The notes below the pieces were generated by a model that had not been told where the DNA came from, ran no database searches, and saw nothing but the letters and a program-made list of their open reading frames with translations. Shown here piece by piece: positions 30,119-56,361 of a DNA stretch of 64,000 nucleotides (the first letter of the stretch is position 1; every line of letters starts with the position of its first letter). The stretch lies in the NCBI RefSeq assembly GCF_053078305.1, contig NZ_CP166879.1; one strand, given 5' to 3'. Both the position numbers and the translations under genes were made by a program.

Positions 30119-31657
30119 ATGCAACAACCTGTAGTTCGCGTTGGCGAATGGCTTGTTACTCCGTCCATAAACCAAATTAGCCGCAATGGGCGTCAACTTA
30201 CCCTTGAGCCGAGATTAATCGACCTTCTGGTTTTCTTTGCTCAACACAGTGGCGAAGTACTTAGCAGGGATGAACTTATCGATAATGTCTGGAAGAGAAG
30301 TATTGTCACCAATCACGTTGTGACACAGAGTATCTCAGAACTACGTAAGTCATTAAAAGATAATGATGAAGATAGTCCTGTCTATATCGCTACTGTACCA
30401 AAGCGCGGCTATAAATTAATGGTGCCGGTTATCTGGTACAGCGAAGAAGAGGGAGAGGAAATAATGCTATCTTCGCCTCCCCCTATACCAGAGGCGGTTC
30501 CTGCCACAGATTCTCCCTCCCACAGTCTTAACATTCAAAACACCGCAACGCCACCTGAACAATCCCCAGTTAAAAGCAAACGATTCACTACCTTTTGGGT
30601 ATGGTTTTTTTTCCTGTTGTCCTTAGGTATCTGTGTAGCACTGGTAGCGTTTTCAAGTCTTGATACACGTCTTCCGATGAGCAAATCGCGTATTTTGCTC
30701 AATCCACGCGATATTGACATTAATATGGTAAATAAAAGTTGTAACAGCTGGAGTTCCCCGTATCAGCTCTCTTACGCGATAGGCGTGGGTGATTTGGTGG
30801 CGACATCACTTAACACCTTCTCCACCTTTATGGTGCATGACAAAATCAACTACAACATTGATGAACCGAGCAGTTCCGGTAAAACATTATCTATTGCGTT
30901 TGTTAATCAGCGCCAATACCGTGCTCAACAATGCTTTATGTCGATAAAATTAGTAGACAATGCAGATGGTTCAACCATGCTGGATAAACGTTATGTCATC
31001 ACTAACGGTAATCAGCTGGCGATTCAAAATGATTTACTGGAGAGTTTATCAAAAGCGTTAAACCAACCGTGGCCACAACGAATGCAGGAGACGCTCCAGC
31101 AAATTTTGCCTCATCGTGGTGCGTTATTAACTAATTTTTATCAGGCACATGATTATTTACTGCATGGCGATGATAAATCATTGAACCGTGCCAGTGAATT
31201 ATTAGGTGAGATTGTTCAATCATCCCCAGAATTTACCTACGCGAGAGCAGAAAAAGCATTAGTTGATATCGTGCGCCATTCTCAACATCCTTTAGATGAA
31301 AAACAATTAGCAGCACTGAACACAGAAATAGATAACATTGTTACACTACCGGAATTGAATAACCTGTCCATTATATATCAAATAAAAGCGGTCAGTGCTC
31401 TGGTAAAAGGTAAAACAGATGAGTCTTACCAGGCGATAAATACTGGCATTGATCTTGAAATGTCCTGGCTAAATTATGTATTGCTTGGCAAGGTTTATGA
31501 AATGAAGGGGATGAACCGGGAAGCAGCTGATGCATATCTCACCGCCTTTAATTTACGCCCAGGGGCAAACACCCTTTACTGGATTGAAAATGGTATATTC
31601 CAGACTTCTGTTCCTTATGTTGTACCTTATCTCGACAAATTTCTCGCTTCAGAATAA
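30119..31657 (+). CDS. cadC: CadC, membrane-integrated transcriptional activator of cadBA
   Basis: 512 aa MQQPVVRVGEWLVTPSINQISRNGRQLTLEPRLIDLLVFF... Confidence 0.95.
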   Translation: MQQPVVRVGEWLVTPSINQISRNGRQLTLEPRLIDLLVFFAQHSGEVLSRDELIDNVWKRSIVTNHVVTQSISELRKSLKDNDEDSPVYIATVPKRGYKLMVPVIWYSEEEGEEIMLSSPPPIPEAVPATDSPSHSLNIQNTATPPEQSPVKSKRFTTFWVWFFFLLSLGICVALVAFSSLDTRLPMSKSRILLNPRDIDINMVNKSCNSWSSPYQLSYAIGVGDLVATSLNTFSTFMVHDKINYNIDEPSSSGKTLSIAFVNQRQYRAQQCFMSIKLVDNADGSTMLDKRYVITNGNQLAIQNDLLESLSKALNQPWPQRMQETLQQILPHRGALLTNFYQAHDYLLHGDDKSLNRASELLGEIVQSSPEFTYARAEKALVDIVRHSQHPLDEKQLAALNTEIDNIVTLPELNNLSIIYQIKAVSALVKGKTDESYQAINTGIDLEMSWLNYVLLGKVYEMKGMNREAADAYLTAFNLRPGANTLYWIENGIFQTSVPYVVPYLDKFLASE

Positions 31658-31789
31658 GTAACTCCCGGGTTGATTCATGCTAGGGAATATTTGTTGTTGA
31701 GTTTTTGTATGTTCCTGTTGGTATAATATGTTGCGGCAATTTATTTGCCGCATAATTTTTATTACATAAATTTAACCAGAAGACGTCAC

Positions 31790-31960
31790 GCAATCTATTG
31801 TAAACATTGAATGTTTATCTTTTCATGATATCAACTTGCGATCCTGATGTGTTAATAAAAAACCTCAAGTTCTCACTTACAGAAACTTTTGTGTTATTTC
31901 ACCTAATCTTTAGGATTAATCCTTTTTTCGTGAGTAATCTTATCGCCAGTTTGGTCTGGT
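31790..31960 (+). promoter_or_regulatory. cadBA promoter region with CadC-binding palindrome
   Basis: Perfect palindrome aaacatt g aatgttt at 31802-31816 upstream of cadB; AT-rich region. Confidence 0.5.
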
Positions 31961-32022
31961 CAGGAAATAGTTATACATCATGACCCGGACTCCAAATTCA
32001 AAAATGAAATTAGGAGAAGAGC

Positions 32023-33357
32023 ATGAGTTCTGCCAAGAAGATCGGGCTATTTGCCTGTACCGGTGTTGTTGCCGGTAATATGATGGGGAGCGGTATTGCA
32101 TTATTACCTGCGAACCTAGCAAGTATCGGTGGTATTGCTATCTGGGGTTGGATTATCTCTATTATTGGTGCAATGTCGCTGGCGTATGTATATGCCCGAC
32201 TGGCAACAAAAAACCCGCAACAAGGTGGCCCAATTGCTTATGCCGGAGAAATTTCTCCTGCATTTGGTTTTCAGACAGGTGTTCTTTATTACCATGCTAA
32301 CTGGATTGGTAACCTGGCGATTGGTATTACCGCTGTATCTTATCTTTCCACCTTCTTCCCAGTATTAAATGATCCTGTTCCGGCGGGTATCGCCTGTATT
32401 GCTATCGTCTGGGTATTTACCTTTGTAAATATGCTCGGCGGTACTTGGGTAAGCCGTTTAACCACTATTGGTCTGGTGCTGGTTCTTATTCCTGTGGTGA
32501 TGACTGCTATTGTTGGCTGGCATTGGTTTGATGCGGCAACTTATGCAGCTAACTGGAATACTGCGGATACCACTGATGGTCATGCGATCATTAAAAGTAT
32601 TCTGCTCTGCCTGTGGGCCTTCGTGGGTGTTGAATCCGCAGCAGTAAGTACTGGTATGGTTAAAAACCCGAAACGTACCGTTCCGCTGGCAACCATGCTG
32701 GGTACTGGTTTAGCAGGTATTGTTTATATCGCTGCGACTCAGGTGCTTTCCGGTATGTATCCGTCTTCTGTAATGGCAGCTTCCGGTGCTCCGTTTGCAA
32801 TCAGTGCTTCAACTATCCTCGGTAACTGGGCTGCGCCGCTGGTTTCTGCATTCACCGCCTTTGCGTGCCTGACTTCTCTGGGCTCCTGGATGATGTTGGT
32901 AGGCCAGGCAGGTGTACGTGCCGCTAACGACGGTAACTTCCCGAAAGTTTATGGTGAAGTCGACAGCAACGGTATTCCGAAAAAAGGTCTGCTGCTGGCT
33001 GCAGTGAAAATGACTGCCCTGATGATCCTCATCACTCTGATGAACTCTGCCGGTGGTAAAGCATCTGACCTGTTCGGTGAACTGACCGGTATCGCAGTAC
33101 TGCTGACTATGCTGCCGTACTTCTACTCTTGCGTTGACCTGATTCGTTTTGAAGGCGTTAACATCCGCAACTTTGTCAGCCTGATCTGCTCTGTACTGGG
33201 TTGCGTGTTCTGCTTCATCGCGCTGATGGGCGCAAGCTCCTTCGAGCTGGCAGGTACCTTCATCGTCAGCCTGATTATCCTGATGTTCTACGCTCGCAAA
33301 ATGCACGAGCGCCAGAGCCACTCAATGGATAACCACACCGCGTCTAACGCACATTAA
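32023..33357 (+). CDS. cadB: Lysine:cadaverine antiporter
   Basis: 444 aa MSSAKKIGLFACTGVVAGNMMGSGIALLPANLA... Confidence 0.95.
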   Translation: MSSAKKIGLFACTGVVAGNMMGSGIALLPANLASIGGIAIWGWIISIIGAMSLAYVYARLATKNPQQGGPIAYAGEISPAFGFQTGVLYYHANWIGNLAIGITAVSYLSTFFPVLNDPVPAGIACIAIVWVFTFVNMLGGTWVSRLTTIGLVLVLIPVVMTAIVGWHWFDAATYAANWNTADTTDGHAIIKSILLCLWAFVGVESAAVSTGMVKNPKRTVPLATMLGTGLAGIVYIAATQVLSGMYPSSVMAASGAPFAISASTILGNWAAPLVSAFTAFACLTSLGSWMMLVGQAGVRAANDGNFPKVYGEVDSNGIPKKGLLLAAVKMTALMILITLMNSAGGKASDLFGELTGIAVLLTMLPYFYSCVDLIRFEGVNIRNFVSLICSVLGCVFCFIALMGASSFELAGTFIVSLIILMFYARKMHERQSHSMDNHTASNAH

Positions 33358-33436: not shown

Positions 33437-35584
33437 ATGAACGTTATTGCAATATTGAATCACATGGGGGTTTATTTTAAAGAAGAACCCATCCGTGAAC
33501 TTCATCGCGCGCTTGAACGTCTGAACTTCCAGATTGTTTACCCGAACGACCGTGACGACTTATTAAAACTGATCGAAAACAATGCGCGTCTGTGCGGCGT
33601 TATTTTTGACTGGGATAAATATAATCTCGAGCTGTGCGAAGAAATTAGCAAAATGAACGAGAACCTGCCGTTGTACGCGTTCGCTAATACGTATTCCACT
33701 CTCGATGTAAGCCTGAATGACCTGCGTTTACAGATTAGCTTCTTTGAATATGCGCTGGGTGCTGCTGAAGATATTGCTAACAAGATCAAGCAGACCACTG
33801 ACGAATATATCAACACTATTCTGCCTCCGCTGACTAAAGCACTGTTTAAATATGTTCGTGAAGGTAAATATACTTTCTGTACTCCTGGTCACATGGGCGG
33901 TACTGCATTCCAGAAAAGCCCGGTAGGTAGCCTGTTCTATGATTTCTTTGGTCCGAATACCATGAAATCTGATATTTCCATTTCAGTATCTGAACTGGGT
34001 TCTCTGCTGGATCACAGTGGTCCACACAAAGAAGCAGAACAGTATATCGCTCGCGTCTTTAACGCAGACCGCAGCTACATGGTGACCAACGGTACTTCCA
34101 CTGCGAACAAAATTGTTGGTATGTACTCTGCTCCGGCAGGCAGCACCATTCTGATTGACCGTAACTGCCACAAATCGCTGACCCACCTGATGATGATGAG
34201 CGATGTTACGCCAATCTATTTCCGCCCGACCCGTAACGCTTACGGTATTCTTGGTGGTATCCCACAGAGTGAATTCCAGCACGCTACCATTGCTAAGCGC
34301 GTGAAAGAAACACCAAACGCAACCTGGCCGGTACATGCTGTAATTACCAACTCTACCTATGATGGTCTGCTGTACAACACCGACTTCATCAAGAAAACAC
34401 TGGATGTGAAATCCATCCACTTTGACTCCGCGTGGGTGCCTTACACCAACTTCTCACCGATTTACGAAGGTAAATGCGGTATGAGCGGTGGCCGTGTCGA
34501 AGGGAAAGTGATTTACGAAACCCAGTCCACTCACAAACTGCTGGCGGCGTTCTCTCAGGCTTCCATGATCCACGTTAAAGGTGACGTAAACGAAGAAACC
34601 TTTAACGAAGCCTACATGATGCACACCACCACTTCTCCGCACTACGGTATCGTGGCGTCCACTGAAACCGCTGCGGCGATGATGAAAGGCAATGCAGGTA
34701 AGCGTCTGATCAACGGTTCCATTGAACGTGCGATCAAATTCCGTAAAGAGATCAAACGTCTGAGAACGGAATCTGATGGCTGGTTCTTTGATGTATGGCA
34801 GCCGGATCATATCGATACGACTGAATGCTGGCCGCTGCGTTCTGACAGCACCTGGCACGGCTTCAAAAACATCGATAACGAGCACATGTATCTTGACCCG
34901 ATCAAAGTCACCCTGCTGACTCCGGGGATGGAAAAAGACGGCACCATGAGCGACTTTGGTATTCCGGCCAGCATCGTGGCGAAATACCTCGACGAACATG
35001 GCATCGTTGTTGAGAAAACCGGTCCGTATAACCTGCTGTTCCTGTTCAGCATCGGTATCGATAAGACCAAAGCACTGAGCCTGCTGCGTGCTCTGACTGA
35101 CTTCAAACGTGCGTTCGACCTGAACCTGCGTGTGAAAAACATGCTGCCGTCTCTGTATCGTGAAGATCCTGAATTCTATGAAAACATGCGTATTCAGGAA
35201 CTGGCTCAGAATATCCACAAACTGATTGTTCACCACAATCTGCCGGATCTGATGTATCGCGCATTTGAAGTGCTGCCGACGATGGTAATGACTCCGTATG
35301 CTGCGTTCCAGAAAGAGCTGCACGGTATGACCGAAGAAGTTTACCTCGACGAAATGGTAGGTCGTATTAACGCCAATATGATCCTTCCATATCCGCCGGG
35401 AGTTCCTCTGGTAATGCCGGGTGAAATGATCACCGAAGAAAGCCGTCCGGTTCTGGAGTTCCTGCAGATGCTGTGTGAAATCGGCGCTCACTATCCGGGC
35501 TTTGAAACCGATATTCACGGTGCATACCGTCAGGCTGATGGCCGCTATACCGTTAAGGTATTGAAAGAAGAAAGCAAAAAATAA
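33437..35584 (+). CDS. cadA: Inducible lysine decarboxylase
   Basis: 715 aa MNVIAILNHMGVYFKEEPIRELHRALERLNFQIVYPNDRDD... Confidence 0.95.
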   Translation: MNVIAILNHMGVYFKEEPIRELHRALERLNFQIVYPNDRDDLLKLIENNARLCGVIFDWDKYNLELCEEISKMNENLPLYAFANTYSTLDVSLNDLRLQISFFEYALGAAEDIANKIKQTTDEYINTILPPLTKALFKYVREGKYTFCTPGHMGGTAFQKSPVGSLFYDFFGPNTMKSDISISVSELGSLLDHSGPHKEAEQYIARVFNADRSYMVTNGTSTANKIVGMYSAPAGSTILIDRNCHKSLTHLMMMSDVTPIYFRPTRNAYGILGGIPQSEFQHATIAKRVKETPNATWPVHAVITNSTYDGLLYNTDFIKKTLDVKSIHFDSAWVPYTNFSPIYEGKCGMSGGRVEGKVIYETQSTHKLLAAFSQASMIHVKGDVNEETFNEAYMMHTTTSPHYGIVASTETAAAMMKGNAGKRLINGSIERAIKFRKEIKRLRTESDGWFFDVWQPDHIDTTECWPLRSDSTWHGFKNIDNEHMYLDPIKVTLLTPGMEKDGTMSDFGIPASIVAKYLDEHGIVVEKTGPYNLLFLFSIGIDKTKALSLLRALTDFKRAFDLNLRVKNMLPSLYREDPEFYENMRIQELAQNIHKLIVHHNLPDLMYRAFEVLPTMVMTPYAAFQKELHGMTEEVYLDEMVGRINANMILPYPPGVPLVMPGEMITEESRPVLEFLQMLCEIGAHYPGFETDIHGAYRQADGRYTVKVLKEESKK

Positions 35585-35642: not shown

Positions 35643-37100
35643 ATGAAAACACCCTCACAGCCGCGCGCGATATACTATATCGTGGCGATCCAAATCTGGG
35701 AGTACTTCAGTTTTTACGGCATGCGTGCCTTACTCATTCTCTATCTCACCCATCAGCTTGGTTTTGATGATAACCATGCCATCAGCCTGTTCAGCGCATA
35801 TGCTTCTCTGGTTTACGTTACCCCTATTCTCGGCGGCTGGCTTGCCGACCGCCTGCTCGGCAACCGCACTGCAGTGATTGCCGGCGCGCTGTTAATGACT
35901 CTTGGCCATGTGGTGCTGGGCATTGATACAAATTCAACCTTTAGCCTGTATCTGGCGCTGGCAATCATTATTTGTGGCTACGGTTTATTCAAATCAAACA
36001 TCAGCTGTTTGCTTGGCGAGCTCTACGACGAGAACGATCATCGACGTGATGGCGGTTTTTCGCTGCTGTATGCTGCGGGCAATATCGGTTCTATCGCCGC
36101 CCCAATCGCCTGCGGCCTGGCTGCTCAGTGGTATGGATGGCATGTTGGCTTTGCCCTTGCGGGTGGCGGCATGTTTATCGGTTTGTTGATTTTCTTAAGC
36201 GGTCATCGTCATTTCCAGTCCACGCGTAGTATGGATAAAAAAGCGCTCACTAGTGTCAAATTTGCCTTACCAGTATGGAGCTGGTTAGTGGTGATGCTCT
36301 GTTTAGCCCCAGTATTTTTTACTCTGCTGCTGGAGAACGACTGGTCCGGATATTTGCTGGCGATCGTTTGCCTTATCGCCGCACAAATCATTGCCCGCAT
36401 GATGATCAAATTCCCCGAACACCGCCGTGCTCTTTGGCAAATTGTATTGTTGATGTTTGTCGGGACATTGTTCTGGGTACTGGCACAACAGGGCGGCAGT
36501 ACCATCAGTCTGTTTATCGATCGCTTTGTGAATCGTCAGGCATTCAATATTGAAGTACCTACTGCACTATTCCAGTCGGTGAATGCAATTGCGGTGATGC
36601 TCGCTGGGGTTGTTCTAGCCTGGCTGGCGTCGCCAGAAAGCCACGGCAACTCAACATTGCGCGTCTGGCTGAAGTTTGCCTTTGGCTTACTACTGATGGC
36701 TTGTGGCTTTATGTTGCTGGCATTTGATGCCCGACATGCAGCAGCTGACGGTCAAGCGTCAATGGGCGTGATGGTATCCGGGCTGGCGCTAATGGGCTTT
36801 GCCGAACTCTTTATTGACCCGGTGGCGATTGCGCAAATCACGCGTCTGAAAATGTCTGGCGTATTAACCGGGATTTATATGCTGGCAACAGGCGCGGTCG
36901 CCAACTGGCTGGCAGGCGTAGTGGCACAGCAGACGACAGAGTCGCAAATTAGCGGTATGGCAATTGCAGCTTACCAGCGATTCTTTTCTCAGATGGGAGA
37001 GTGGACGTTGGCTTGTGTCGCGATCATCGTCGTATTGGCCTTTGCTACCCGTTTCCTGTTTAGCACGCCGACGAATATGGTACAGGAGAGCAACGATTAA
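35643..37100 (+). CDS. dtpC: Dipeptide/tripeptide:H+ symporter DtpC (YjdL)
   Basis: 485 aa [36 protein letters not shown]... Confidence 0.9.
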
Positions 37101-37336
37101 CTGTCGTAAAAACAATTGGTTATGAATAAATTAACTTTCAGTTTATCACACTAGTAAATCGAGATTAATAAGTCATTTAAACCATTTTGATGGTTATTTA
37201 TTAGTGATATCAACTTGAGGTAAGCGTTAGTTTCGATAAGATAAACTGAGTTATTAATAGTCGAGGCAGATAATACAGTGTACCGATCTGTCTCTTTATC
37301 TACGCTAAATTGAAAGCTGGATTTAGAGGAACCAAA

Positions 37337-38854
37337 ATGTCTGAACAAGAAACACGGGGAGCCAATGAGGCTATTGATTTTAACGATGAACTGAGAAATC
37401 GCCGCGAAAAACTGGCGGCACTACGTCAGCAAGGTGTGGCGTTTCCCAATGATTTTCGCCGCGACCATACCTCTGACCAGTTGCACGAAGAGTTTGATGC
37501 GAAGGATAACCAGGAACTGGAATCCTTAAACATTGAAGTCTCGGTTGCTGGCCGAATGATGACCCGTCGTATCATGGGGAAAGCCTCCTTTGTAACGTTG
37601 CAGGATGTCGGTGGCCGTATTCAACTGTACGTCGCACGAGATAGCCTGCCAGAAGGTGTTTATAACGATCAGTTTAAAAAATGGGATCTGGGTGACATTA
37701 TCGGTGCCCGCGGTACGCTGTTTAAGACGCAAACGGGTGAGCTTTCCATTCACTGTACTGAGCTGCGCCTGCTGACTAAAGCACTACGTCCTTTACCAGA
37801 TAAATTCCATGGTCTGCAGGATCAGGAAGTTCGTTATCGTCAACGTTATCTGGACCTCATCGCTAACGATAAATCCCGTCAAACGTTTGTTGTCCGTTCA
37901 AAAATTCTGGCCGCTATCCGTCAGTTCATGGTCGCGCGCGGCTTTATGGAAGTAGAAACCCCGATGATGCAGGTAATTCCAGGTGGGGCATCTGCTCGCC
38001 CGTTTATTACCCATCATAATGCTCTGGATTTAGATATGTATCTGCGTATCGCGCCGGAGCTGTATCTGAAACGTCTGGTTGTAGGCGGTTTTGAACGGGT
38101 ATTCGAAATCAACCGTAACTTCCGTAATGAAGGTATTTCTGTTCGCCATAATCCTGAGTTCACAATGATGGAACTCTACATGGCGTATGCGGATTACCAC
38201 GATTTGATTGAACTGACAGAGTCACTGTTCCGCACCCTGGCACAAGAGGTTCTGGGTACCACTAAAGTCACTTATGGCGAGCATGTGTTTGATTTCGGCA
38301 AACCGTTTGAAAAACTCACCATGCGCGAAGCAATCAAAAAATATCGTCCAGAAACCGATATGGCCGACCTGGATAATTTTGATGCTGCTAAAGCATTAGC
38401 TGAATCTATCGGAATTACGGTAGAGAAAAGCTGGGGGCTGGGACGTATTGTCACGGAGATCTTTGATGAAGTGGCAGAAGCACATCTGATTCAGCCAACC
38501 TTTATTACGGAATATCCGGCAGAAGTGTCACCGCTGGCACGCCGTAATGATGTTAACCCGGAAATCACCGACCGTTTTGAATTCTTCATCGGTGGTCGTG
38601 AAATCGGTAATGGTTTTAGCGAATTAAACGACGCAGAAGATCAGGCTGAACGTTTCCAGGAACAGGTTAATGCTAAAGCTGCAGGTGACGACGAAGCCAT
38701 GTTCTATGACGAAGATTACGTGACTGCGCTGGAATATGGTCTGCCGCCAACCGCTGGTCTGGGTATTGGTATCGACCGAATGATTATGCTGTTCACAAAC
38801 AGTCATACTATTCGCGACGTTATTCTCTTCCCGGCGATGCGCCCACAGAAATAA
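37337..38854 (+). CDS. lysU: Lysyl-tRNA synthetase, heat-inducible
   Basis: 505 aa [44 protein letters not shown]...; lysU (not lysS) by position next to cadA-dtpC. Confidence 0.95.
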
Positions 38855-38972
38855 ATTTCACTTTAATGAACGAAGCAGTCAGGCGACTGCTTCGTTCGTC
38901 GTTCCGCAAATCCAGTTTTGAGGAGAGACGCTTCGTTTCACGATAACCAGCGGGTCCACTCAACTACAGCTC

Positions 38973-39146
38973 CTAAAAGAGAGAAAAAAGTAATGCCACA
39001 GGCAGACTCATTGGCCAGGTTATTCCGACCAGGAATGCACTAAGTAAACGAATATGTGTTTTCTCATGTGAGATAAACCAGATAATGACAAAGGATATGT
39101 TCACACCAATCACATAAAAAATTAATATTTTAGAGAATAGTGCCAT
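38973..39146 (-). CDS. ghoT: GhoT membrane-lytic toxin (type V TA)
   Basis: 57 aa MALFSKILIFYVIGVNISFVIIWFISHEKTHIRLLSAFLVGITWPMSLPVALLFSLF; below the ORF-track size cutoff, found by manual translation. Confidence 0.85.
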   Translation of the reverse strand: MALFSKILIFYVIGVNISFVIIWFISHEKTHIRLLSAFLVGITWPMSLPVALLFSLF

Positions 39147-39173
39147 TTTTTATGTTCTTCTTATCCTTCCTGG

Positions 39174-39470
39174 CTACTTGTAAAACTGACGGAAATAGTC
39201 ATCAACTGTCATAATGTTGAGGTCAAAATCAATATCCGGTAAGTCTAAGCATTTAAGCCTGATTAAATCTTCGATTTCACTTACGGCTAACGATGTCGTT
39301 ATTGCGAAGGAATTTTCATTCAATTGTCGTGGTATCCCATATTCATCAGCCACGATAGAAGAGAAATTCATATCATACATCAATGATCTTAACCTTAAGA
39401 ACACTGAGGAATAAGATGATGGATAATCAAAAGAAACAACATAAGTATTGAACTTGTTTTTACCTTCCAT
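39174..39470 (-). CDS. ghoS: GhoS antitoxin (endoribonuclease, type V TA)
   Basis: 98 aa MEGKNKFNTYVVSFDYPSSYSSVFLRLRSLMYDMNF... Confidence 0.9.
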   Translation of the reverse strand: MEGKNKFNTYVVSFDYPSSYSSVFLRLRSLMYDMNFSSIVADEYGIPRQLNENSFAITTSLAVSEIEDLIRLKCLDLPDIDFDLNIMTVDDYFRQFYK

Positions 39471-39969: not shown

Positions 39970-39980
39970 TTTACCCTCGC

Positions 39981-46374: not shown

Positions 46375-46496
46375 CCTCTTCGGCCCAGCGCCTGGCAGCA
46401 TGCTGCCAGGTGATCCCCCTGGGCCACCTCTTTTGCGATTGTAATTTCACGCTTGCTGGTGAATAGTCAGTATTTTCCCTGACTTGCGAACTCACC

Positions 46497-47126
46497 ATGA
46501 CCCGCACACTCAAGCCGTTAATTCTTAACACCGGCGCACTGGCGCTAACGTTAATCCTCATTTATACCGGCATTTCGGCCCATGACAAACTCACCTGGCT
46601 GATGGAAGTGACACCGGTGATTATTGTCATGCCGCTACTGCTTGCCACCGCCAGACGTTATCCGTTAACGCCGCTGCTCTATACGCTCATTTTCTTTCAC
46701 GCCATCATCCTGATGGTCGGCGGGCAATACACCTACGCGAAAGTCCCCGTTGGTTTTGAGGTGCAGGAATGGCTGGGGTTGAGCCGTAATCCGTATGACA
46801 AGCTGGGGCATTTTTTCCAGGGGCTGGTGCCTGCACTGGTGGCACGAGAGATCCTTGTGCGCGGGATGTACGTTCGCGGACGTAAAATGGTGGCGTTTCT
46901 GGTCTGTTGCGTGGCGCTGGCGATAAGCGCGATGTATGAATTAATCGAGTGGTGGGCGGCGCTGGCAATGGGCCAGGGAGCGGATGATTTTCTCGGCACC
47001 CAGGGCGACCAGTGGGACACGCAATCCGATATGTTCTGCGCGCTGCTTGGCGCATTAACGACGGTGATATTCCTCGCTCGCTTTCATTGCCGCCAGCTAC
47101 GGCGCTTTGGCTTGATAACCGGATAA
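46497..47126 (+). CDS. yjdF: Inner membrane protein YjdF
   Basis: 209 aa MTRTLKPLILNTGALALTLILIYTGISAHDKL... Confidence 0.8.
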   Translation: MTRTLKPLILNTGALALTLILIYTGISAHDKLTWLMEVTPVIIVMPLLLATARRYPLTPLLYTLIFFHAIILMVGGQYTYAKVPVGFEVQEWLGLSRNPYDKLGHFFQGLVPALVAREILVRGMYVRGRKMVAFLVCCVALAISAMYELIEWWAALAMGQGADDFLGTQGDQWDTQSDMFCALLGALTTVIFLARFHCRQLRRFGLITG

Positions 47127-47264
47127 CAACGTGCACTTTGTTGATGCCGGATGCGGCGTGAATTCCTTATCCGGTCTACAAAATTTGCAAATCCAAAGCA
47201 TTCCATTAAGACGTGGCCTGATAAACATATCGCATCAGGCCATTTTCGTTAGCTATTGTCCACG

Positions 47265-48686
47265 TCAGGCTTTCACATCACTCACTGCACCGACCGGAAT
47301 ATCAGCATGAACAGGCTCGTGCGGTACTTTGCGATATTTATCCAGCAGATGAATCTGGATCCTGCGCAGCGTGTCGCCATTGAGGCGATAGAAACGGAAG
47401 TAGAGAATCAGCGTTACCATGAAAAACAGAGTCGGTAGAGCAATCATAATAAACTGCATACCTAATAGGGCTTGCGTAGACTGTTCAACATTCGGTACAT
47501 AGCCAATCATCCCTAACACAACCGCAATGAAAAAAGCCGCAAAGGCTGAACCGCCCTTCACCACCATAGTCTGCACGGAGTAAGCGATGCTTTCACAGCG
47601 TACGTGCAGTTTATATTCACCGTAATCAACGGTATCTGCCACCATGATGACCTGTAATACCCAGAAAAGCGCCGTTCCCACATTCAGCAAGATACCCGCA
47701 ATCACAATGAGGACGACGTTGTGATAGCTCATTAATGCCATTAACAGGAGAACACCACAGCTTAACACCGGAAGAATAGATGCTCCGGCCCATAAAATGC
47801 GTCGGGATAATGATTTAACTAAGCGTGGGAAGAATACTAACGTCACCAGGTTAGCAGCTCCCGCATACGACAGATAATAGGGGAACAAATCCGCATCACC
47901 GATAACATATGAGAAATAATAGATAGCAAAGCCGGTAATAATGTTGCTGGCTACATTATAAGCAAGAGCCATACCCAAGAGGCATGAAAGCTGATCGTTT
48001 TTATAAATAAGCGCAACGATGGCTTTAAGTGTCAGATGGCTTCCTTCAGCAGACGGTTGATTGTCTGACGAAAAGACTTCATGCACATTGCGCAGAGTGA
48101 TGATGGTTGAAACAATAAAAAAGGCGATCAGTACCAGTGTGAACATCTGAAAGCCAAATCCCCGATCGCCACCGCCGACATAATTAACAAATGGTAGCGT
48201 CACACCTGCCGTAACAAAGCCCGCCAGACTGGCAAAAAAACGCGGATAAGGAACCAGTTGTTCACGCTCACGTTTATCGAGCGTGATGGTTGGAACCAGC
48301 GACCAGAAGGGAATATCCATAATGGTGTAAGTCATGCCCCAGAGGATGTAGGTCACGCAAACAAAGACAATCTGAGTAGTACCTTCAAACAGATGCGCAC
48401 TAAAGAGGAGAAATAAGATTACAGAGTTTGCCAACGTACCGATCAGGATCCAGGGTTTGAACTTACCCCATCGCGATCGCGTAGCATTTACAATCCATCC
48501 CATAATCGGATCGTTAATAGCATCCCAGATCCTCGCCACCAGAAACAAAGTACCGACCAAACCCACAGACAGCCCGACGACATCGGTGTAGTAATACATG
48601 AGGTACATATACACAATGCCGATCGCAAAATCCTTCCCGAACGCTCCAAATCCATAACTGAGTTTTGTAGTCATTGAAATGCTCAT
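47265..48686 (-). CDS. melB: Melibiose:cation symporter
   Basis: 473 aa from [40 protein letters not shown]... Confidence 0.9.
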
Positions 48687-48788
48687 AGGGTATCGGGTCG
48701 CTGTTACCAACGCCCGCCTTCTGTTATTGGTATCGTCAGAGGTGTGCGCCGGAATAAATCCCCCGGCGCAGTAGCGTTTAGTCGCGTT

Positions 48789-50144
48789 TTAACGGTGCAA
48801 CCAGCCTGGCAGCCAGTCGCCGTGGGCGGCAATCAGGTCGTCAACAAGAGCATATATTTCATCAATGCCCAGCACGGCGGCAGTATGCGGGTCCATCATC
48901 GCAGCGTGGTAAACACGGTCGCGATTTTCCGTAAGAATAGCTTCAGTCAGCAGCGTCTGTACGTTGATGTTGGTTTGCATCAGGGCGGCCAGATGCGAAG
49001 GTAGCGTACCGACTTTGGTCGGCTGAATGCCATTAGCATCAACCAGACAGGCCACTTCCACGCAACATCCTTGTGGCAGGTTATCAATCAAACCATCGTT
49101 ACGGACGTTGCCGTAAATCACACTCGGCTCGCCCGTCCAGATAGCGTTCATGATTGTGCTGGCATATTCCCGTGACGGTTTAATATCAATCCGGGAGGCG
49201 TTTTTATACTCCTCCAGCTCTTTATGCCAGTTCGCCAGCTGCTCGACGCAGCGTTTCGGGTACTCATCCAGCGGTACTTTATAACGCTCAATCAAATCCT
49301 CACGACCTGGCTTAATAAACCACGGTGTGTACTCAGCAAAATGTTCTGACGATTCCGTGACGAAATAGCCCAGCTTTTTGAACATTTCATAGCGCACAAT
49401 ATTCTGGCAGCGAGTATTGCCGTGAATATTCGGCTTCGGTGCCTGCCCTGCGTCATAAGCCGCCAGCAGTTCCGGGTAGAGATTCACGTAACTGCCGTCA
49501 GCGGTTTTGCGCTCCAGCTCCAGGTAAAACGCCATATGGTTGATACCTGCGCAACGGTAACGCAGCGTAGCCGGGTCGATATTGAGGTCACGCGCCAGCT
49601 CTTCCGCCGTTCCCTGCACCGAATGGCACAGCCCGACCTGTTTGATATGCGGATAGCGGGCATACATCGCCCAGGTATTCATCGCCATTGGGTTAACATA
49701 GTTGAGCATGGTGGCATCGGGGCAGACTTCCGTCATGTCCTCGCAAATTTGCCACAGATGCGGAATGGTACGTAGCGCGCGCATAATACCGCCCGGCCCC
49801 AACGTATCGGCAATGGTTTGTTCCAGACCATGCCGCTTACAGACCTCGAAATCAGTCACCGTGCAAGGTTCATAACCGCCAATCTGAAATGCCACCACGA
49901 CAAAATCGGCATCCTCTAAGGCTTCTTTCTGTTGGGTGTGGCAGGTGATTTTGCCGCTGGCCCCTGCTGAATCCATCAGCTTACGCACCACAATATGCGA
50001 CTCTTCCAGGCGGGTGGGGTCAATGTCCATCAGGGCAATATGCGCCGTTTTCAGCGCCTCGCGATGGAACACATCACCAAGAATATTTTTAACGAAAATC
50101 GTCGAACCAGCGCCGATAAATGTAATTTTGGGTGCAGACATCAT
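48789..50144 (-). CDS. melA: Alpha-galactosidase (NAD/Mn-dependent, GH4)
   Basis: 451 aa MMSAPKITFIGAGSTIFVKNILGDVFHREALK... Confidence 0.95.
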   Translation of the reverse strand: MMSAPKITFIGAGSTIFVKNILGDVFHREALKTAHIALMDIDPTRLEESHIVVRKLMDSAGASGKITCHTQQKEALEDADFVVVAFQIGGYEPCTVTDFEVCKRHGLEQTIADTLGPGGIMRALRTIPHLWQICEDMTEVCPDATMLNYVNPMAMNTWAMYARYPHIKQVGLCHSVQGTAEELARDLNIDPATLRYRCAGINHMAFYLELERKTADGSYVNLYPELLAAYDAGQAPKPNIHGNTRCQNIVRYEMFKKLGYFVTESSEHFAEYTPWFIKPGREDLIERYKVPLDEYPKRCVEQLANWHKELEEYKNASRIDIKPSREYASTIMNAIWTGEPSVIYGNVRNDGLIDNLPQGCCVEVACLVDANGIQPTKVGTLPSHLAALMQTNINVQTLLTEAILTENRDRVYHAAMMDPHTAAVLGIDEIYALVDDLIAAHGDWLPGWLHR

Positions 50145-50426
50145 GCAGATCTCCTGGCTTGCTTGAATAACTTCATCATGGCAGGCGAATCTGCAGAAAA
50201 CCTCCGGCTTCCAGGTTGAGCATTCCCATAAACTCAGATCCTGCGTGAAGCAGCAGTAAATCTGAGTTTATGGGAATAATTTACCTGAAAAGCAGAGTTT
50301 TCGGCCTCATGATGCTCGGACACTCCCCTCGCCTCTCTGAGAAGAGGGTGAAAACCGTGCTCCCACTCGCAGTCATCCTCCCTCACTCCTGCCATAATTC
50401 TGATATTCCAGGAAAGAGAGCCATCC
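50145..50426. promoter_or_regulatory. Divergent melR / melAB promoter region
   Basis: Intergenic region between divergently transcribed melA and melR; MelR/CRP sites expected from K-12 biology, not individually mapped here. Confidence 0.5.
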
Positions 50427-51335
50427 ATGAATACAGATACGTTTATGTGCAGCAGCGACGAAAAACAGACCCGCAGCCCGCTGTCGCTGTATTCGGAATA
50501 CCAGCGGATGGAGATTGAGTTTCGCGCACCGCATATCATGCCCACCAGCCACTGGCATGGTCAGGTCGAAGTGAATGTGCCTTTCGATGGCGATGTGGAA
50601 TACCTGATCAACAATGAAAAAGTGAATATCAATCAGGGTCATATCACGCTGTTCTGGGCCTGTACACCGCACCAACTAACAGATACCGGAACCTGTCAGA
50701 GCATGGCGATTTTTAATCTGCCGATGCATCTGTTTCTCTCCTGGCCGCTGGATAAGGACCTGATTAACCACGTCACTCACGGCATGGTGATCAAATCACT
50801 GGCTACACAGCAACTTAGCCCGTTTGAAGTGCGCCGCTGGCAGCAGGAATTGAACAGTCCGAATGAGCAAATTCGCCAGCTCGCCATTGATGAAATTGGC
50901 CTGATGCTCAAGCGATTTAGCCTCTCTGGCTGGGAACCGATTCTGGTCAATAAAACCTCGCGCACACACAAAAACAGCGTCTCGCGCCATGCGCAATTTT
51001 ATGTTAGCCAGATGCTGGGCTTTATTGCCGAAAACTATGATCAGGCGCTGACCATCAACGATGTGGCTGAGCACGTCAAACTTAACGCCAACTATGCAAT
51101 GGGGATATTCCAGCGGGTCATGCAATTGACGATGAAACAGTACATTACCGCGATGCGCATCAACCACGTTCGCGCGTTACTGAGCGATACCGATAAAAGT
51201 ATTCTCGATATTGCCCTGACGGCAGGCTTTCGTTCAAGTAGTCGTTTTTACAGCACGTTCGGCAAATATGTCGGCATGTCGCCGCAACAATACCGCAAAC
51301 TTAGCCAACAGCGCCGCCAGACGTTTCCCGGCTAA
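50427..51335 (+). CDS. melR: AraC-family melibiose operon activator
   Basis: 302 aa MNTDTFMCSSDEKQTRSPLSLYSEYQRMEIEFRAPHIMPTSHWHGQVEVNVPF... Confidence 0.9.
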   Translation: MNTDTFMCSSDEKQTRSPLSLYSEYQRMEIEFRAPHIMPTSHWHGQVEVNVPFDGDVEYLINNEKVNINQGHITLFWACTPHQLTDTGTCQSMAIFNLPMHLFLSWPLDKDLINHVTHGMVIKSLATQQLSPFEVRRWQQELNSPNEQIRQLAIDEIGLMLKRFSLSGWEPILVNKTSRTHKNSVSRHAQFYVSQMLGFIAENYDQALTINDVAEHVKLNANYAMGIFQRVMQLTMKQYITAMRINHVRALLSDTDKSILDIALTAGFRSSSRFYSTFGKYVGMSPQQYRKLSQQRRQTFPG

Positions 51336-51533: not shown

Positions 51534-53801
51534 ATGAAAGTATTAATTGTTGAAAGCGAGTTTCTCCATCAAGACACCTGGGTCGGTAACGCCGTTGAGC
51601 GTCTGGCAGATGCTTTAAGCCAGCAAAATGTTACCGTGATTAAATCCACCTCCTTTGATGATGGTTTTGCCATTCTCTCTTCAAACGAAGCCATTGACTG
51701 CCTGATGTTCAGCTATCAAATGGAACATCCGGACGAACATCAAAACGTCAGACAATTGATCGGTAAGCTTCATGAGCGCCAACAAAACGTGCCGGTCTTC
51801 CTGTTGGGCGATCGGGAAAAAGCCCTCGCCGCAATGGACCGGGATCTGCTGGAGCTTGTCGATGAATTCGCCTGGATTCTGGAAGATACCGCCGACTTTA
51901 TCGCCGGACGCGCCGTTGCCGCGATGACCCGCTACCGCCAGCAGCTGTTGCCGCCACTGTTCAGCGCGCTGATGAAATATAGCGACATCCATGAATATTC
52001 CTGGGCAGCGCCAGGCCACCAGGGCGGCGTTGGTTTTACCAAAACACCCGCCGGACGTTTCTACCATGACTACTATGGTGAAAATCTGTTCCGCACCGAC
52101 ATGGGCATCGAACGAACTTCCCTCGGTTCTTTGCTTGACCATACTGGCGCATTTGGCGAAAGCGAAAAATATGCCGCACGCGTATTTGGTGCCGATCGCT
52201 CCTGGTCGGTAGTCGTCGGTACTTCCGGCTCTAACCGCACCATCATGCAGGCTTGCATGACCGATAACGATGTCGTGGTTGTTGACCGTAACTGCCATAA
52301 ATCCATCGAACAAGGTTTGATGCTGACAGGCGCGAAACCGGTCTATATGGTGCCAAGCCGCAACCGCTACGGCATTATCGGGCCAATCTATCCGCAGGAA
52401 ATGCAACCTGAAACCTTGCAGAAGAAAATCAGTGAAAGCCCGCTGACCAAAGACAAAGCCGGGCAAAAACCGTCTTACTGCGTGGTGACCAACTGCACCT
52501 ATGACGGCGTGTGTTATAACGCTAAAGAAGCGCAGGATCTGCTGGAAAAAACCTCCGATCGTCTGCACTTTGACGAAGCCTGGTACGGCTATGCACGTTT
52601 CAACCCGATCTATGCCGATCACTATGCCATGCGCGGCGAACCTGGCGATCACAACGGTCCTACCGTTTTCGCCACCCACTCCACCCACAAACTGCTGAAT
52701 GCGCTTTCACAGGCTTCTTATATTCATGTACGTGAAGGTCGTGGGGCGATTAACTTCTCCCGCTTCAACCAGGCCTACATGATGCATGCCACCACCTCCC
52801 CGCTGTATGCCATCTGCGCATCCAACGACGTGGCGGTGTCGATGATGGACGGCAACAGCGGCCTGTCACTGACGCAGGAAGTGATCGACGAAGCGGTTGA
52901 TTTCCGTCAGGCGATGGCGCGGCTGTATAAAGAGTTCACCGCTGACGGTAGCTGGTTCTTCAAACCGTGGAACAAAGAAGTCGTCACCGACCCACAAACC
53001 GGCAAAACCTATGACTTTGCTGACGCACCAACCAAACTGCTGACCACCGTTCAGGACTGCTGGGTAATGCATCCGGGCGAAAGCTGGCACGGCTTCAAAG
53101 ATATTCCGGATAACTGGAGTATGCTCGACCCGATTAAAGTCAGCATCCTTGCTCCGGGAATGGGTGAAGATGGTGAACTGGAAGAAACCGGTGTTCCGGC
53201 GGCACTGGTCACTGCCTGGCTTGGTCGCCACGGCATTGTGCCTACCCGCACCACTGACTTCCAAATTATGTTCCTGTTCTCTATGGGCGTAACCCGTGGG
53301 AAATGGGGGACTCTGGTTAACACCCTTTGCTCCTTCAAACGCCACTATGACGCCAACACACCGCTGGCGCAGGTGATGCCGGAACTTGTTGAACAATATC
53401 CTGACACTTACGCGAACATGGGGATTCACGATCTGGGTGACACCATGTTTTCCTGGCTGAAAGAAAACAATCCTGGCGCACGGTTGAACGAAGCCTATTC
53501 CGGCCTACCGGTGGCGGAAATCACCCCGCGTGAAGCGTACAACGCGATTGTCGACAACAATGTCGAACTGGTATCCATTGAAAATCTACCAGGACGCATC
53601 GCGGCAAACTCAGTTATCCCGTATCCGCCAGGAATCCCGATGCTGCTGTCTGGTGAAAACTTCGGCGATAAAAACAGTCCGCAAGTAAGTTATTTACGCT
53701 CGCTGCAATCCTGGGACCATCATTTCCCTGGATTTGAACACGAAACTGAAGGAACTGAAATTATTGACGGTATTTACCACGTTATGTGTGTGAAAGCGTA
53801 A
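51534..53801 (+). CDS. adiA: Biodegradative arginine decarboxylase
   Basis: 755 aa MKVLIVESEFLHQDTWVGNAVERLADALSQQNVTVIKSTSFDDG... Confidence 0.95.
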   Translation: MKVLIVESEFLHQDTWVGNAVERLADALSQQNVTVIKSTSFDDGFAILSSNEAIDCLMFSYQMEHPDEHQNVRQLIGKLHERQQNVPVFLLGDREKALAAMDRDLLELVDEFAWILEDTADFIAGRAVAAMTRYRQQLLPPLFSALMKYSDIHEYSWAAPGHQGGVGFTKTPAGRFYHDYYGENLFRTDMGIERTSLGSLLDHTGAFGESEKYAARVFGADRSWSVVVGTSGSNRTIMQACMTDNDVVVVDRNCHKSIEQGLMLTGAKPVYMVPSRNRYGIIGPIYPQEMQPETLQKKISESPLTKDKAGQKPSYCVVTNCTYDGVCYNAKEAQDLLEKTSDRLHFDEAWYGYARFNPIYADHYAMRGEPGDHNGPTVFATHSTHKLLNALSQASYIHVREGRGAINFSRFNQAYMMHATTSPLYAICASNDVAVSMMDGNSGLSLTQEVIDEAVDFRQAMARLYKEFTADGSWFFKPWNKEVVTDPQTGKTYDFADAPTKLLTTVQDCWVMHPGESWHGFKDIPDNWSMLDPIKVSILAPGMGEDGELEETGVPAALVTAWLGRHGIVPTRTTDFQIMFLFSMGVTRGKWGTLVNTLCSFKRHYDANTPLAQVMPELVEQYPDTYANMGIHDLGDTMFSWLKENNPGARLNEAYSGLPVAEITPREAYNAIVDNNVELVSIENLPGRIAANSVIPYPPGIPMLLSGENFGDKNSPQVSYLRSLQSWDHHFPGFEHETEGTEIIDGIYHVMCVKA

Positions 53802-54125
53802 CCACTATTCCGCTGAAGGCGTAATTGTTTAAATAACATTACGCCGCCTGGCCTTAGGCCTTTTGAGTATGGCAACGTTTTCATAAAAATTGCTGCAAAC
53901 AAAAATGTCATACTTTTTGCGCGGCCCCACCCCGCGCTTTTTTTTGCCTGTTATTTACCCTGTAAAAAAATATGTACATGAGAAATTTTTATAAAAATTT
54001 GTAATATTAGTAAAACTCGTTATTTTTATGCATGTTTATATTCATCATACAATTATATAACCATTTCCCGGTATCGCTTTGCTTTAGCGAGAACTGGTCT
54101 TTTATTCGCACTCAGGAGTACATGT

Positions 54126-54887
54126 ATGAGGATTTGCAGCGACCAACCTTGTATTGTTTTATTGACTGAAAAAGATGTCTGGATAAGGGTGAATGGGAAA
54201 GAACCTATTAGCCTTAAAGCTAACCATATGGCGTTATTAAATTGTGAAAATAATATTATCGACGTCTCCTCTCTTAACAACACTTTGGTTGCTCATATTA
54301 GTCACGACATCATCAAAGATTACCTCCGGTTTCTGAATAAAGATCTCTCGCAAATACCAGTATGGCAACGTAGCGCTACGCCCATTCTCACCCTGCCATG
54401 CCTGACACCAGACGTCTTTCGCGTTGCCGCGCAACACAGCATGATGCCCGCAGAAACTGAGTCAGAAAAGGAACGAACACGCGCATTATTATTCACGGTG
54501 CTATCCCGTTTTCTCGACAGTAAAAAATTCCTTTCATTAATGATGTATATGTTACGTAATTGTGTAAGTGACAGCGTTTATCAAATTATTGAAAGCGATA
54601 TTCACAAAGACTGGAATCTTAGTATGGTAGCCAGTTGTTTATGTCTTAGCCCAAGTCTGTTAAAGAAAAAGCTGAAAAGCGAAAACACCAGTTATAGCCA
54701 AATAATCACCACCTGCCGCATGCGTTATGCCGTAAATGAATTAATGATGGACGGTAAAAATATCTCTCAGGTATCACAGTCCTGCGGCTACAACAGTACG
54801 TCGTACTTTATTTCTGTCTTTAAAGACTTCTACGGTATGACGCCGCTGCATTATGTTAGTCAGCACAGAGAACGCACTGTCGCCTGA
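54126..54887 (+). CDS. adiY: AraC-family regulator of the adi system
   Basis: 253 aa MRICSDQPCIVLLTEKDVWIRVNGKEPISLKANHMALLNCENNIID... Confidence 0.9.
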   Translation: MRICSDQPCIVLLTEKDVWIRVNGKEPISLKANHMALLNCENNIIDVSSLNNTLVAHISHDIIKDYLRFLNKDLSQIPVWQRSATPILTLPCLTPDVFRVAAQHSMMPAETESEKERTRALLFTVLSRFLDSKKFLSLMMYMLRNCVSDSVYQIIESDIHKDWNLSMVASCLCLSPSLLKKKLKSENTSYSQIITTCRMRYAVNELMMDGKNISQVSQSCGYNSTSYFISVFKDFYGMTPLHYVSQHRERTVA

Positions 54888-55023
54888 TTTTTAACCTTAA
54901 CGAAGAGCTATATTAATAACGGCATCAGCGATAACCCGGTCGATAATAATTCAACTATCGAATGCAGGCGTATGATATGACGTAATTTATTGTCACGAAG
55001 CTCGCCTTCGCAGGAGTTTAATT

Positions 55024-56361
55024 ATGTCTTCGGATGCTGATGCTCACAAAGTGGGCTTAATCCCCGTCACCCTGATGGTGTCGGGGAATATTATGGGGTC
55101 AGGTGTTTTTCTGTTACCTGCAAACCTGGCCTCCACCGGCGGGATTGCCATTTATGGATGGTTGGTGACGATTATCGGTGCGCTGGGGCTCTCGATGGTA
55201 TACGCCAAAATGTCGTTCCTCGACCCAAGTCCTGGTGGTTCTTACGCTTACGCCCGCCGCTGCTTTGGCCCGTTTCTCGGTTATCAAACCAACGTCCTCT
55301 ACTGGCTGGCCTGCTGGATCGGCAATATCGCCATGGTGGTCATTGGCGTAGGATATTTAAGTTACTTCTTCCCGATTCTGAAAGATCCATTGGTATTAAC
55401 CATCACCTGCGTCGTGGTGCTGTGGATCTTCGTCCTGCTGAACATTGTCGGTCCGAAAATGATCACCCGTGTGCAGGCCGTTGCCACCGTGCTGGCGCTG
55501 ATCCCCATCGTCGGGATTGCCGTATTTGGCTGGTTCTGGTTCCGTGGTGAAACCTATATGGCGGCATGGAACGTCAGCGGCCTGGGCACCTTCGGTGCAA
55601 TTCAAAGTACCCTTAACGTTACGCTGTGGTCGTTCATCGGTGTGGAAAGTGCCTCCGTTGCCGCAGGTGTGGTGAAAAACCCGAAACGCAATGTCCCTAT
55701 CGCCACCATCGGTGGGGTATTGATTGCCGCCGTTTGCTATGTGCTCTCCACCACCGCGATTATGGGGATGATCCCTAATGCCGCACTGCGCGTTTCTGCC
55801 TCGCCATTCGGTGATGCCGCACGGATGGCGTTGGGTGACACCGCCGGGGCCATTGTTTCCTTCTGCGCAGCTGCGGGTTGCTTAGGTTCACTGGGCGGCT
55901 GGACATTGCTGGCGGGTCAAACGGCGAAAGCCGCTGCCGATGACGGACTGTTCCCACCGATTTTTGCCCGTGTAAATAAAGCGGGTACGCCAGTGGCGGG
56001 GCTGATTATCGTCGGTATTTTGATGACCATCTTCCAGCTCAGCAGCATTTCACCAAACGCGACCAAAGAATTCGGTCTGGTGTCTTCCGTTTCGGTCATC
56101 TTTACACTGGTGCCATATCTTTACACCTGTGCGGCGTTACTGCTGCTCGGCCACGGTCACTTTGGTAAAGCACGCCCGGCATATCTGGCAGTTACTACCA
56201 TTGCCTTCCTCTACTGCATCTGGGCCGTGGTGGGGTCCGGGGCGAAAGAGGTTATGTGGTCATTTGTCACCCTGATGGTCATCACCGCCATGTATGCGCT
56301 GAATTACAACCGGCTGCATAAAAACCCGTATCCCTTAGATGCACCAATAAGCAAAGATTAA
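55024..56361 (+). CDS. adiC: Arginine:agmatine antiporter
   Basis: 445 aa [40 protein letters not shown]... Confidence 0.95.

Follow-up and report, generated by a model that had tools for sequence, protein, structure and literature searches.

The occurrence of cadC-cadBA and adiA-adiY-adiC within 26 kb of each other raises the question of whether both modules are intact and placed as in Escherichia coli K-12, whether they are paralogous as wholes, and whether their closeness has any functional meaning. We analyzed a window of 64,000 nucleotides (the whole stretch of DNA taken from NCBI RefSeq assembly GCF_053078305.1, contig NZ_CP166879.1), in which the interval 30119-56361 begins at the cadC start and ends at the adiC stop, with the gene order cadC, cadB, cadA, dtpC, lysU, ghoT/ghoS, yjdJ/yjdI, dcuSR, dcuB, fumB, yjdF, melBA, melR, adiA, adiY, adiC. 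The features to which the text refers are the following:

16294-16530, IS102, an Rfam match outside the cadC-adiC interval
29484..30118, plus strand, left edge of the K-12-like block, made up of the repeated pheU 3' end (19 nt) followed by the pheU-cadC spacer, in which the integrase remnant yjdQ lies
30119..31657, plus strand, cadC, membrane-integrated ToxR-like pH sensor and cadBA activator (K-12 comparison, NCBIfam, Pfam, PDB)
31658..32022, plus strand, cadC-cadB spacer: cadBA promoter region with a putative CadC-binding region (alignment with K-12 and strain D8)
31732-31752, terminator-like hairpin of cadC (pattern scan)
32023..33357, plus strand, cadB, lysine/cadaverine antiporter (K-12 comparison, NCBIfam, Pfam)
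33437..35584, plus strand, cadA, inducible lysine decarboxylase (K-12 comparison, NCBIfam, Pfam, PDB)
35596-35621, terminator-like hairpin after cadA (pattern scan)
35643..51335, dtpC, lysU, ghoT/ghoS (minus strand), yjdJ/yjdI (minus strand), dcuS, dcuR, dcuB, fumB, yjdF, melB/melA (minus strand) and melR (K-12 comparison)
51465-51493, promoter-like site of adiA (pattern match only)
51534..53801, plus strand, adiA, biodegradative arginine decarboxylase (K-12 comparison, NCBIfam, Pfam)
53919-53937, terminator-like hairpin after adiA (pattern match only)
54126..54887, plus strand, adiY, AraC-family activator between adiA and adiC (K-12 comparison, Pfam)
55024..56361, plus strand, adiC, arginine/agmatine antiporter (K-12 comparison, NCBIfam)
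56386-56415, hairpin 3' of the adiC stop (pattern match)
59843-60008, STnc630, an Rfam match outside the cadC-adiC interval

Consensus scans for promoters and terminators returned about as many sites as expected from shuffled sequence, and these sites serve only as descriptive landmarks. The two Rfam families that match the window both fall outside the cadC-adiC interval, in which no structured RNA was detected, and ARAGORN found no tRNA in the window. Mechanical calling of open reading frames starts cadA at 33398 and adiA at 51531, each of these being an upstream in-frame ATG.

The placement of the two modules can be read directly from the comparison with K-12. A single blastn alignment joins window positions 29484-62056 to K-12 positions 4362569-4330002 with 99.04% identity and three gap openings. 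The cadC-adiC interval measures 26,243 bp, compared with 26,241 bp in K-12 MG1655, and is collinear with it at approximately 99% identity; the only indels inside it are 1-nt insertions at 31666, in the cadC-cadB spacer, and at 46421, in the fumB-yjdF spacer, both of them intergenic. The K-12 genes from cadC to adiC are all complete in length in the window, none having a gap, an internal stop or an altered stop codon, and across the 23 genes from cadC to basR the comparison with K-12 revealed no frameshifts, stops, IS elements or indels. The earlier note on this DNA had described both modules as intact, with the dcu and mel loci between them, and had named alignment with K-12 as the check. That alignment bears out the gene identities, their intactness and their order, and curated family models concur: the six cad and adi genes have K-12 lengths, no internal stops and zero to two amino acid changes each, and dcuS, dcuR and dcuB as well as melB, melA and melR lie where they were said to lie, among other K-12 genes. 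The intervening genes, named after the annotation of K-12 and of the collinear strain D8, each have the K-12 length and differ from K-12 by zero to five amino acids.

The cad genes correspond to the Cad (AR4) locus of K-12 MG1655 (b4133-b4131) in identity, order, length and strand relations, with 11, 6 and 8 nucleotide changes in cadC, cadB and cadA, respectively, most of them silent, and with terminators and proximal promoter identical to those of K-12. CadC has the K-12 length of 512 amino acids, 511 of which are identical, the sole substitution being K328Q; its single transmembrane segment follows from this identity and is, to that extent, predicted. The protein scores 753 bits with the NCBIfam equivalog NF007540 (cutoff 400), contains the Pfam domains Trans_reg_C (residues 24-100) and CadC_C1 (residues 191-324), and matches PDB structures 3ly7 and 5ju7. 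Residues C208 and C272, which on the basis of published K-12 work we take to be the periplasmic cysteines, are present, as are D471, H240 and K242, presumably the acid-sensing residues. CadB (444 amino acids) is identical to its K-12 counterpart, reaches 920 bits with the cadaverine/lysine antiporter equivalog NF007754 (cutoff 585), belongs to AA_permease_2 in Pfam and has the AdiC structures as its nearest solved relatives. The cadB stop and the cadA start are separated by 79 nt on the same strand, an operon-like spacing in which the hairpin scan found no terminator-like site. CadA (715 amino acids), also identical to the K-12 protein, scores 1628 bits with the lysine decarboxylase subfamily model NF011929 (cutoff 1056), contains the OKR_DC_1_N, OKR_DC_1 and OKR_DC_1_C domains, and aligns from end to end with 3n75, a solved E. 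coli structure.

The adi genes agree equally well with the Adi (AR3) locus of K-12 MG1655 (b4117-b4115), including the position of adiY between decarboxylase and antiporter, an arrangement regarded as unusual and characteristic (PMC8989999); the spacers contain no indels, and the melR-adiA and adiA-adiY spacers each carry four to five substitutions. AdiA (755 amino acids) is identical to K-12 at 753 positions, the exceptions being A640S and V663I, scores 1704 bits with the arginine decarboxylase equivalog NF011603 (cutoff 1167) and contains three OKR_DC_1 domains. The S-T-H-K motif, which from published K-12 work we take to include the PLP-binding lysine, is present in both decarboxylases, with K367 in CadA and K386 in AdiA. 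AdiY (253 amino acids, HTH_AraC and HTH_18 in Pfam) differs from K-12 at one position, V136L, and is identical to the proteins of strains D8 and AVS0790; among its NCBIfam matches none is named for AdiY, the nearest being GadX, below its cutoff. AdiC (445 amino acids) is identical to the K-12 protein, scores 892 bits with the equivalog NF007929 (cutoff 574) and retains Y93, W202, E208 and W293, presumably the substrate-site residues described in published K-12 work.

The family models also separate these proteins from related systems. CadA and AdiA are matched by the LdcC and ornithine decarboxylase models as well, and CadB and AdiC by those of PotE and the histidine-histamine antiporter, below the cutoffs of the latter two. 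Compared with the SpeF-PotE, LdcC and histidine/histamine systems, each protein of the window exceeds the cutoff for its own substrate class alone, with the exception of CadA, which also passes the LdcC subfamily cutoff, although the CadA-type model scores higher. Given the K-12 lengths, the collinearity, the curated models, the structures, the motif residues and the paralogy described below, these are almost certainly the chromosomal lysine-dependent (Cad, AR4) and arginine-dependent (Adi, AR3) systems of E. coli, at the site between pheU and eptA where they normally lie.

In K-12, Cad is induced by mild acid together with external lysine, with LysP as lysine co-sensor, and Adi in anaerobic rich medium of about pH 4.4; lysP itself lies outside the window. 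By analogy, the induction conditions, transport stoichiometry and regulation of the present systems would be those of published K-12 work, from which they are carried over. Each system would consist of a decarboxylase (CadA or AdiA) from the PLP-dependent Orn/Lys/Arg family, predicted to use up one cytoplasmic proton each time an amino acid is decarboxylated, and an APC-family antiporter (CadB or AdiC) that would exchange the incoming amino acid for the more basic amine, cadaverine or agmatine, the combination of proton use and exchange raising both internal and external pH. CadC, as a membrane-spanning ToxR-like one-component sensor, would bind the cadBA promoter at mildly acidic pH in the presence of lysine, and AdiY, a cytoplasmic AraC-type activator, would activate adiA and adiC when the pH is lower and oxygen is absent, a mechanism as set out in PMC8989999. 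All of this is textbook biology, and nothing new was found inside the cadC-adiC interval. Shigella and enteroinvasive E. coli are known for the loss of cad, and the intactness of both inducible systems sets the strain apart from them.

Intact reading frames could still accompany a module that is silent or altered through missense or regulatory changes. Relative to K-12, the cadC-cadB spacer has eight substitutions and the 1-nt insertion, all in its distal half, with no difference over the proximal 220 nt. One of the substitutions falls at the center of an AT-rich 17-nt quasi-palindrome, TAAACATTGAATGTTTA in the window and TAAACATTAAATGTTTA in K-12, which differ in that base alone, the arms being kept. 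CadC binds two sites, Cad1 and Cad2 (PMC5430869), and the quasi-palindrome probably corresponds to the Cad1 17-mer of that study, which shows the precise positions of its sites in figures alone. To these promoter changes could be added CadC K328Q and AdiA A640S, the serine being found in the window alone among the four strains compared and absent from K-12, D8 and AVS0790. However, apart from two, the spacer differences recur in the wild strain D8, among them the center base of the presumed Cad1 site, which led us to set aside a reading of the spacer as a regulatory variant; Q328 is likewise shared by D8 and STEC1590, and these are therefore common natural alleles for which K-12 is the outlier. 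Moreover, the arms of the palindrome and the proximal promoter are unchanged, and A640S, a conservative substitution, affects the C-terminal domain at a distance from the PLP site (K386). We accordingly give a silenced or altered module next to no probability and regard both systems as the ordinary Cad and Adi of E. coli.

The relationship between the two modules is more restricted than the earlier note had proposed in calling them paralogous. That description holds for the enzymes and transporters: CadA and AdiA share 36% identity over 740 columns (E-value 1e-163), CadB and AdiC 38% over 447 columns (E-value 4e-109), and a DNA-level trace of 83 nt at 73% identity persists between cadA and adiA. 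It fails for the regulators, since CadC is ToxR-like and AdiY of the AraC type, their Pfam families differ, and the best similarity between them has an E-value of 0.10 over 24 residues. The order of the genes is regulator-antiporter-decarboxylase in cad and decarboxylase-regulator-antiporter in adi, and the operon structures differ as well. Duplication of a whole module was rejected on these grounds, as the regulators are not homologous and the gene orders are unlike.

The K-12-like arrangement likewise stands for 30119-56361, which is covered by the single alignment, but not beyond 29484, 635 bp upstream of cadC, where it gives way to an island. Positions 29484-29502 contain a 19-nt sequence, ATTCCGAGTCCGGGCACCA, that is identical to the last 19 nt of K-12 pheU; identity stops immediately upstream of it, and downstream the pheU-cadC spacer is collinear with K-12 with seven mismatches. 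Neither dsbD, dicD nor a full pheU has a match within the window, in which positions 1-29483 are island sequence in place of the K-12 neighbors pheU-dicD-dsbD. Here cad follows 29.5 kb of island and the repeated pheU 3' end; intact pheU occupies that place in K-12. An island terminated by a directly repeated pheU 3' end has been described at the tRNA-pheU site (PMC7686366), and the pheU islands of E. coli, inserted between yjdC/dicD and cadC, have this repeat just upstream of cadC, as here. Positions 1-29483 are the distal part (29.5 kb) of a genomic island inserted at pheU, and elements of this kind are known. The source strain has the standard backbone of the chromosome over the stretch that begins at the pheU attachment site and reaches proP or beyond. 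Beyond annotation the importance of the locus is small, but the boundary provides a useful correction, in that the K-12 backbone starts only at 29484 and is preceded by the pheU island.

It remains to consider why the two systems lie so close together. Their proximity could have been functionally selected, for instance if both modules lay in one H-NS-silenced chromosomal domain or were coupled in space to CadC at its membrane anchor. The activity of Cad and Adi segregates among single cells (PMC8989999), H-NS is reported to control both systems (PMC2984483), and cadC and adiY are both AT-rich (GC 0.42 and 0.41, respectively). Furthermore, about 85% of complete E. coli genomes (4599 of 5426) retain the linkage, with at least 80% of window positions 31400-56361 in one collinear place. 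Yet the core-genome synteny of E. coli is conserved throughout, so that a kept cad-adi linkage carries no information, and in the remaining genomes, about 15%, the search did not return the interval as a single collinear block (strain AVS0790, for instance, has a fimbrial island adjoining yjdJ and no melB). Thirteen unrelated genes on both strands separate the modules, and in Salmonella a long distance separates cad from adi. Two random loci would fall within 26 kb of each other on a 4.64-Mb circle with a probability of about 0.011, but for any pair among six decarboxylase loci, six being an assumed count, the figure is about 0.16, which is not small; the proximity alone is neither statistically striking nor compelling, and we consider functional selection very improbable. 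A different account would make the cad module part of an old pheU-associated insertion, the two systems having become neighbors by horizontal transfer and not by local duplication. This is consistent with the pheU attachment sequence 616 bp from cadC, with the integrase remnant yjdQ in between, with the low GC content of cadC and its flanks (0.40 to 0.44), and with a paralog identity of 36-38%, far too low for recent local duplication. On the other hand, the GC content of cadB and cadA (0.49 and 0.48) is near average and the cad locus is found in nearly all E. coli, and we regard an old insertion as possible but rather unlikely.

The island end might also act on its neighbor, 635 bp away, by altering cadC expression, for instance through read-through or a change in the H-NS-bound AT-rich domain around cadC, or by rendering Cad prone to loss with the island. 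This is a conjecture that we hold to be very improbable; if true, it would shift the division of labor between Cad and Adi in this lineage. A similar island adjoins cadC in STEC1590. The integrase end of the present island and pheU itself lie beyond the window, and the cargo comprises a microcin H47 locus, Ag43, a CP4-like module and a ParE-like toxin, the microcin H47 locus and Ag43/CP4-like module standing in place of pap genes.

The order of genes across window 30119-56361 was established from the window ORF table and gene-by-gene mapping of E. coli K-12 MG1655 genes, and is as follows.

30119-31657, + strand, cadC
32023-33357, + strand, cadB
33437-35584, + strand, cadA
35643-37100, + strand, dtpC
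37337-38854, + strand, lysU
38973-39470, - strand, ghoT/ghoS
39697-40211, - strand, yjdJ/yjdI
40392-42739, + strand, dcuS/dcuR
43310-44650, + strand, dcuB
44728-46374, + strand, fumB
46497-47126, + strand, yjdF
47265-50144, - strand, melB/melA
50427-51335, + strand, melR
51534-53801, + strand, adiA
54126-54887, + strand, adiY
55024-56361, + strand, adiC

Next after adiC come eptA and basR. Every mapped gene has exactly its K-12 length, an ATG start and a terminal stop, and the mapping revealed no internal stop in any of them; the lysine-dependent (Cad) and arginine-dependent (Adi) modules are thus both intact and, as the earlier note had it, the dcu and mel loci (dcuS/dcuR, dcuB, melB/melA and melR) lie between them. 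A single blastn alignment, with three gap openings, joins window 29484-62056 to K-12 4362569-4330002 at 99.04% identity, the window being in the reverse orientation. Within the interval, the only indels relative to K-12 are one extra base in the cadC-cadB spacer and one in the fumB-yjdF spacer, so that it measures 26,243 bp against 26,241 bp in K-12. The K-12-like arrangement previously described therefore holds throughout the interval but breaks down upstream of window 29484, where an island adjoins. The finding is real, was correctly interpreted and is already known, with no sign of novelty inside its coordinates; the sole addition is the island boundary just beyond its left edge. Farther along, between basS and proP, there is an STnc630 sRNA match (182 bits, window 59843-60010); at its edge, three nucleotides (60008-60010) are inserted compared with K-12.

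Homology to K-12 starts within the final 19 nt of pheU (ATTCCGAGTCCGGGCACCA) and disappears directly upstream of them. This 19-nt stretch (window 29484-29502), a direct repeat of the 3' end of pheU, marks the right end of the island and is followed by the K-12 pheU-cadC spacer with its yjdQ integrase remnant. Window 1-29483 represents the distal portion of a genomic island inserted at pheU; the yjdC(dicD)-cadC interval is the insertion site documented for tRNA-pheU islands (PMC7686366). No tRNA gene was found in the window, and K-12 gene mapping placed neither dicD, dsbD nor an intact pheU there; the island is therefore longer than 29.5 kb. The following features were located in it.

1-5653, microcin H47 locus at the left window edge, 99.9% identical to E. 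coli 04-00955, comprising the next five features
~862-1089, - strand, mchB
~1117-1326, - strand, mchI
2140-2574, + strand, mchS3
3113-4387, + strand, IroD-like esterase
4529-5653, - strand, IroB-like glycosyltransferase
16294-16530, IS102 RNA (Rfam match)
16474-19671, Ag43 autotransporter of the CP4-like module
19786-22308, 840-aa ORF, a hypothetical protein in the annotation of related strains
28650-28913, 87-aa ORF overlapping the next
28910-29236, ParE-family toxin ORF

The genes for microcin export, mchE/F, fall outside the window, beyond its left edge. The CP4-like module comprises YagK/YfjJ proteins, YfjI/DUF3987, a YeeP-like GTPase, Ag43 and the 840-aa ORF, which has no Pfam match at E<=1e-5, together with IrmA, DUF932, an antirestriction protein, RadC, CbeA/CbtA, DUF5983, DUF4942 and the ParE-like toxin; the GTPase, the IS102 match, Ag43 and the 840-aa ORF all fall within window 15265-22308. 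The island closes with the 87-aa and ParE-family ORFs, probably a type II toxin-antitoxin pair. Strain STEC1590 carries a similar island adjoining cadC, with no toxin-antitoxin pair annotated at this position. In 04-00955 the matching segment (window 1-28531) ends before the pheU repeat and cadC, so the island may occupy a different chromosomal site in that strain.

The earlier note also called the two modules paralogous, which is borne out for the decarboxylases (CadA-AdiA, 36% identity across the entire length, E 1e-163) and the antiporters (CadB and AdiC, 38%, E 4e-109) but not for the regulators. The best CadC-AdiY protein match has an E-value of 0.10 over 24 residues and their Pfam families differ, so that, judged by sequence, the two are unrelated. 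At the DNA level, a faint trace of 83 nt at 73% identity between cadA and adiA emerged from blastn of the window against K-12. The order is regulator-antiporter-decarboxylase in cad and decarboxylase-regulator-antiporter in adi, the location of adiY between adiA and adiC having been described as unusual (PMC8989999). With unrelated regulators and a different gene order, cad and adi do not resemble a duplicated whole unit. Their closeness is not in itself statistically remarkable. Going by published K-12 work, each system would pair a cytoplasmic decarboxylation that consumes protons with an antiporter swapping the amino acid for its amine. Given external lysine and a pH of about 5.8, the membrane sensor CadC and its co-sensor LysP would turn on Cad; Adi would be turned on through AdiY in rich medium under anaerobiosis, at a pH of about 4.4.

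CadC, CadB, AdiA and AdiC pass their own curated NCBIfam equivalog models far over cutoff, as CadA does the lysine decarboxylase subfamily model; AdiY matched no model above cutoff in the NCBIfam library but contains AraC-type HTH domains and is identical to K-12 AdiY at 252 of 253 residues. CadA, CadB and AdiC are identical to their K-12 counterparts. The substitutions elsewhere are CadC K328Q, AdiY V136L, and AdiA A640S and V663I. Since CadC Q328, AdiY L136 and AdiA I663 also occur in the other wild strains compared, K-12 is the outlier at these positions. AdiA S640 (codon at 53451), a conservative substitution that falls in the C-terminal domain, is confined to the window among four strains compared, being absent from K-12, D8 and AVS0790. 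The PLP-lysine motifs (STHK367 in CadA, STHK386 in AdiA), the CadC periplasmic residues C208, C272, D471, H240 and K242, and AdiC Y93, W202, E208 and W293 are all present, and we take their functional roles to be those assigned in K-12. CadA matches the solved E. coli structure 3n75 over its full length, the CadC periplasmic and DNA-binding domains match 3ly7 and 5ju7, and the nearest solved relatives of CadB are AdiC structures.

The cadC-cadB spacer differs from K-12 by eight substitutions and the 1-nt insertion, all within its distal half and all but two common to strain D8, whereas the 220 nt adjoining cadB are identical. The differences cluster at window 31781-31810 and include an A to G change of the centre base in a 17-nt AT-rich quasi-palindrome (TAAACATTAAATGTTTA in K-12, TAAACATTGAATGTTTA in the window), both arms of which are intact; D8 has these clustered differences too. 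This element is presumed to be the 17-mer core of the CadC-binding site Cad1 discussed in PMC5430869, a placement that we infer because the sequence appears there in figures only; the window version is probably a common natural allele. The adi spacers show a few substitutions and no indels. Hairpins with T runs are predicted 3' of cadC, cadA and adiA, and one without a clear T run 3' of adiC, as pattern matches whose counts are near shuffled expectation.

Of 5426 complete E. coli genomes, 4599 carry at least 80% of window 31400-56361 in one collinear place; in about 15% the interval is not in one collinear piece. The best matches, to D8 and others, are 99.6% identical, and the window's lineage therefore has no exact copy in that collection. 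One exception to collinearity is AVS0790 (NZ_CP124436.1, 827-16451), in which an island encoding a fimbrial usher/chaperone cluster and an S6-family autotransporter peptidase adjoins yjdJ, melB is missing and yjdF leads directly into melA.
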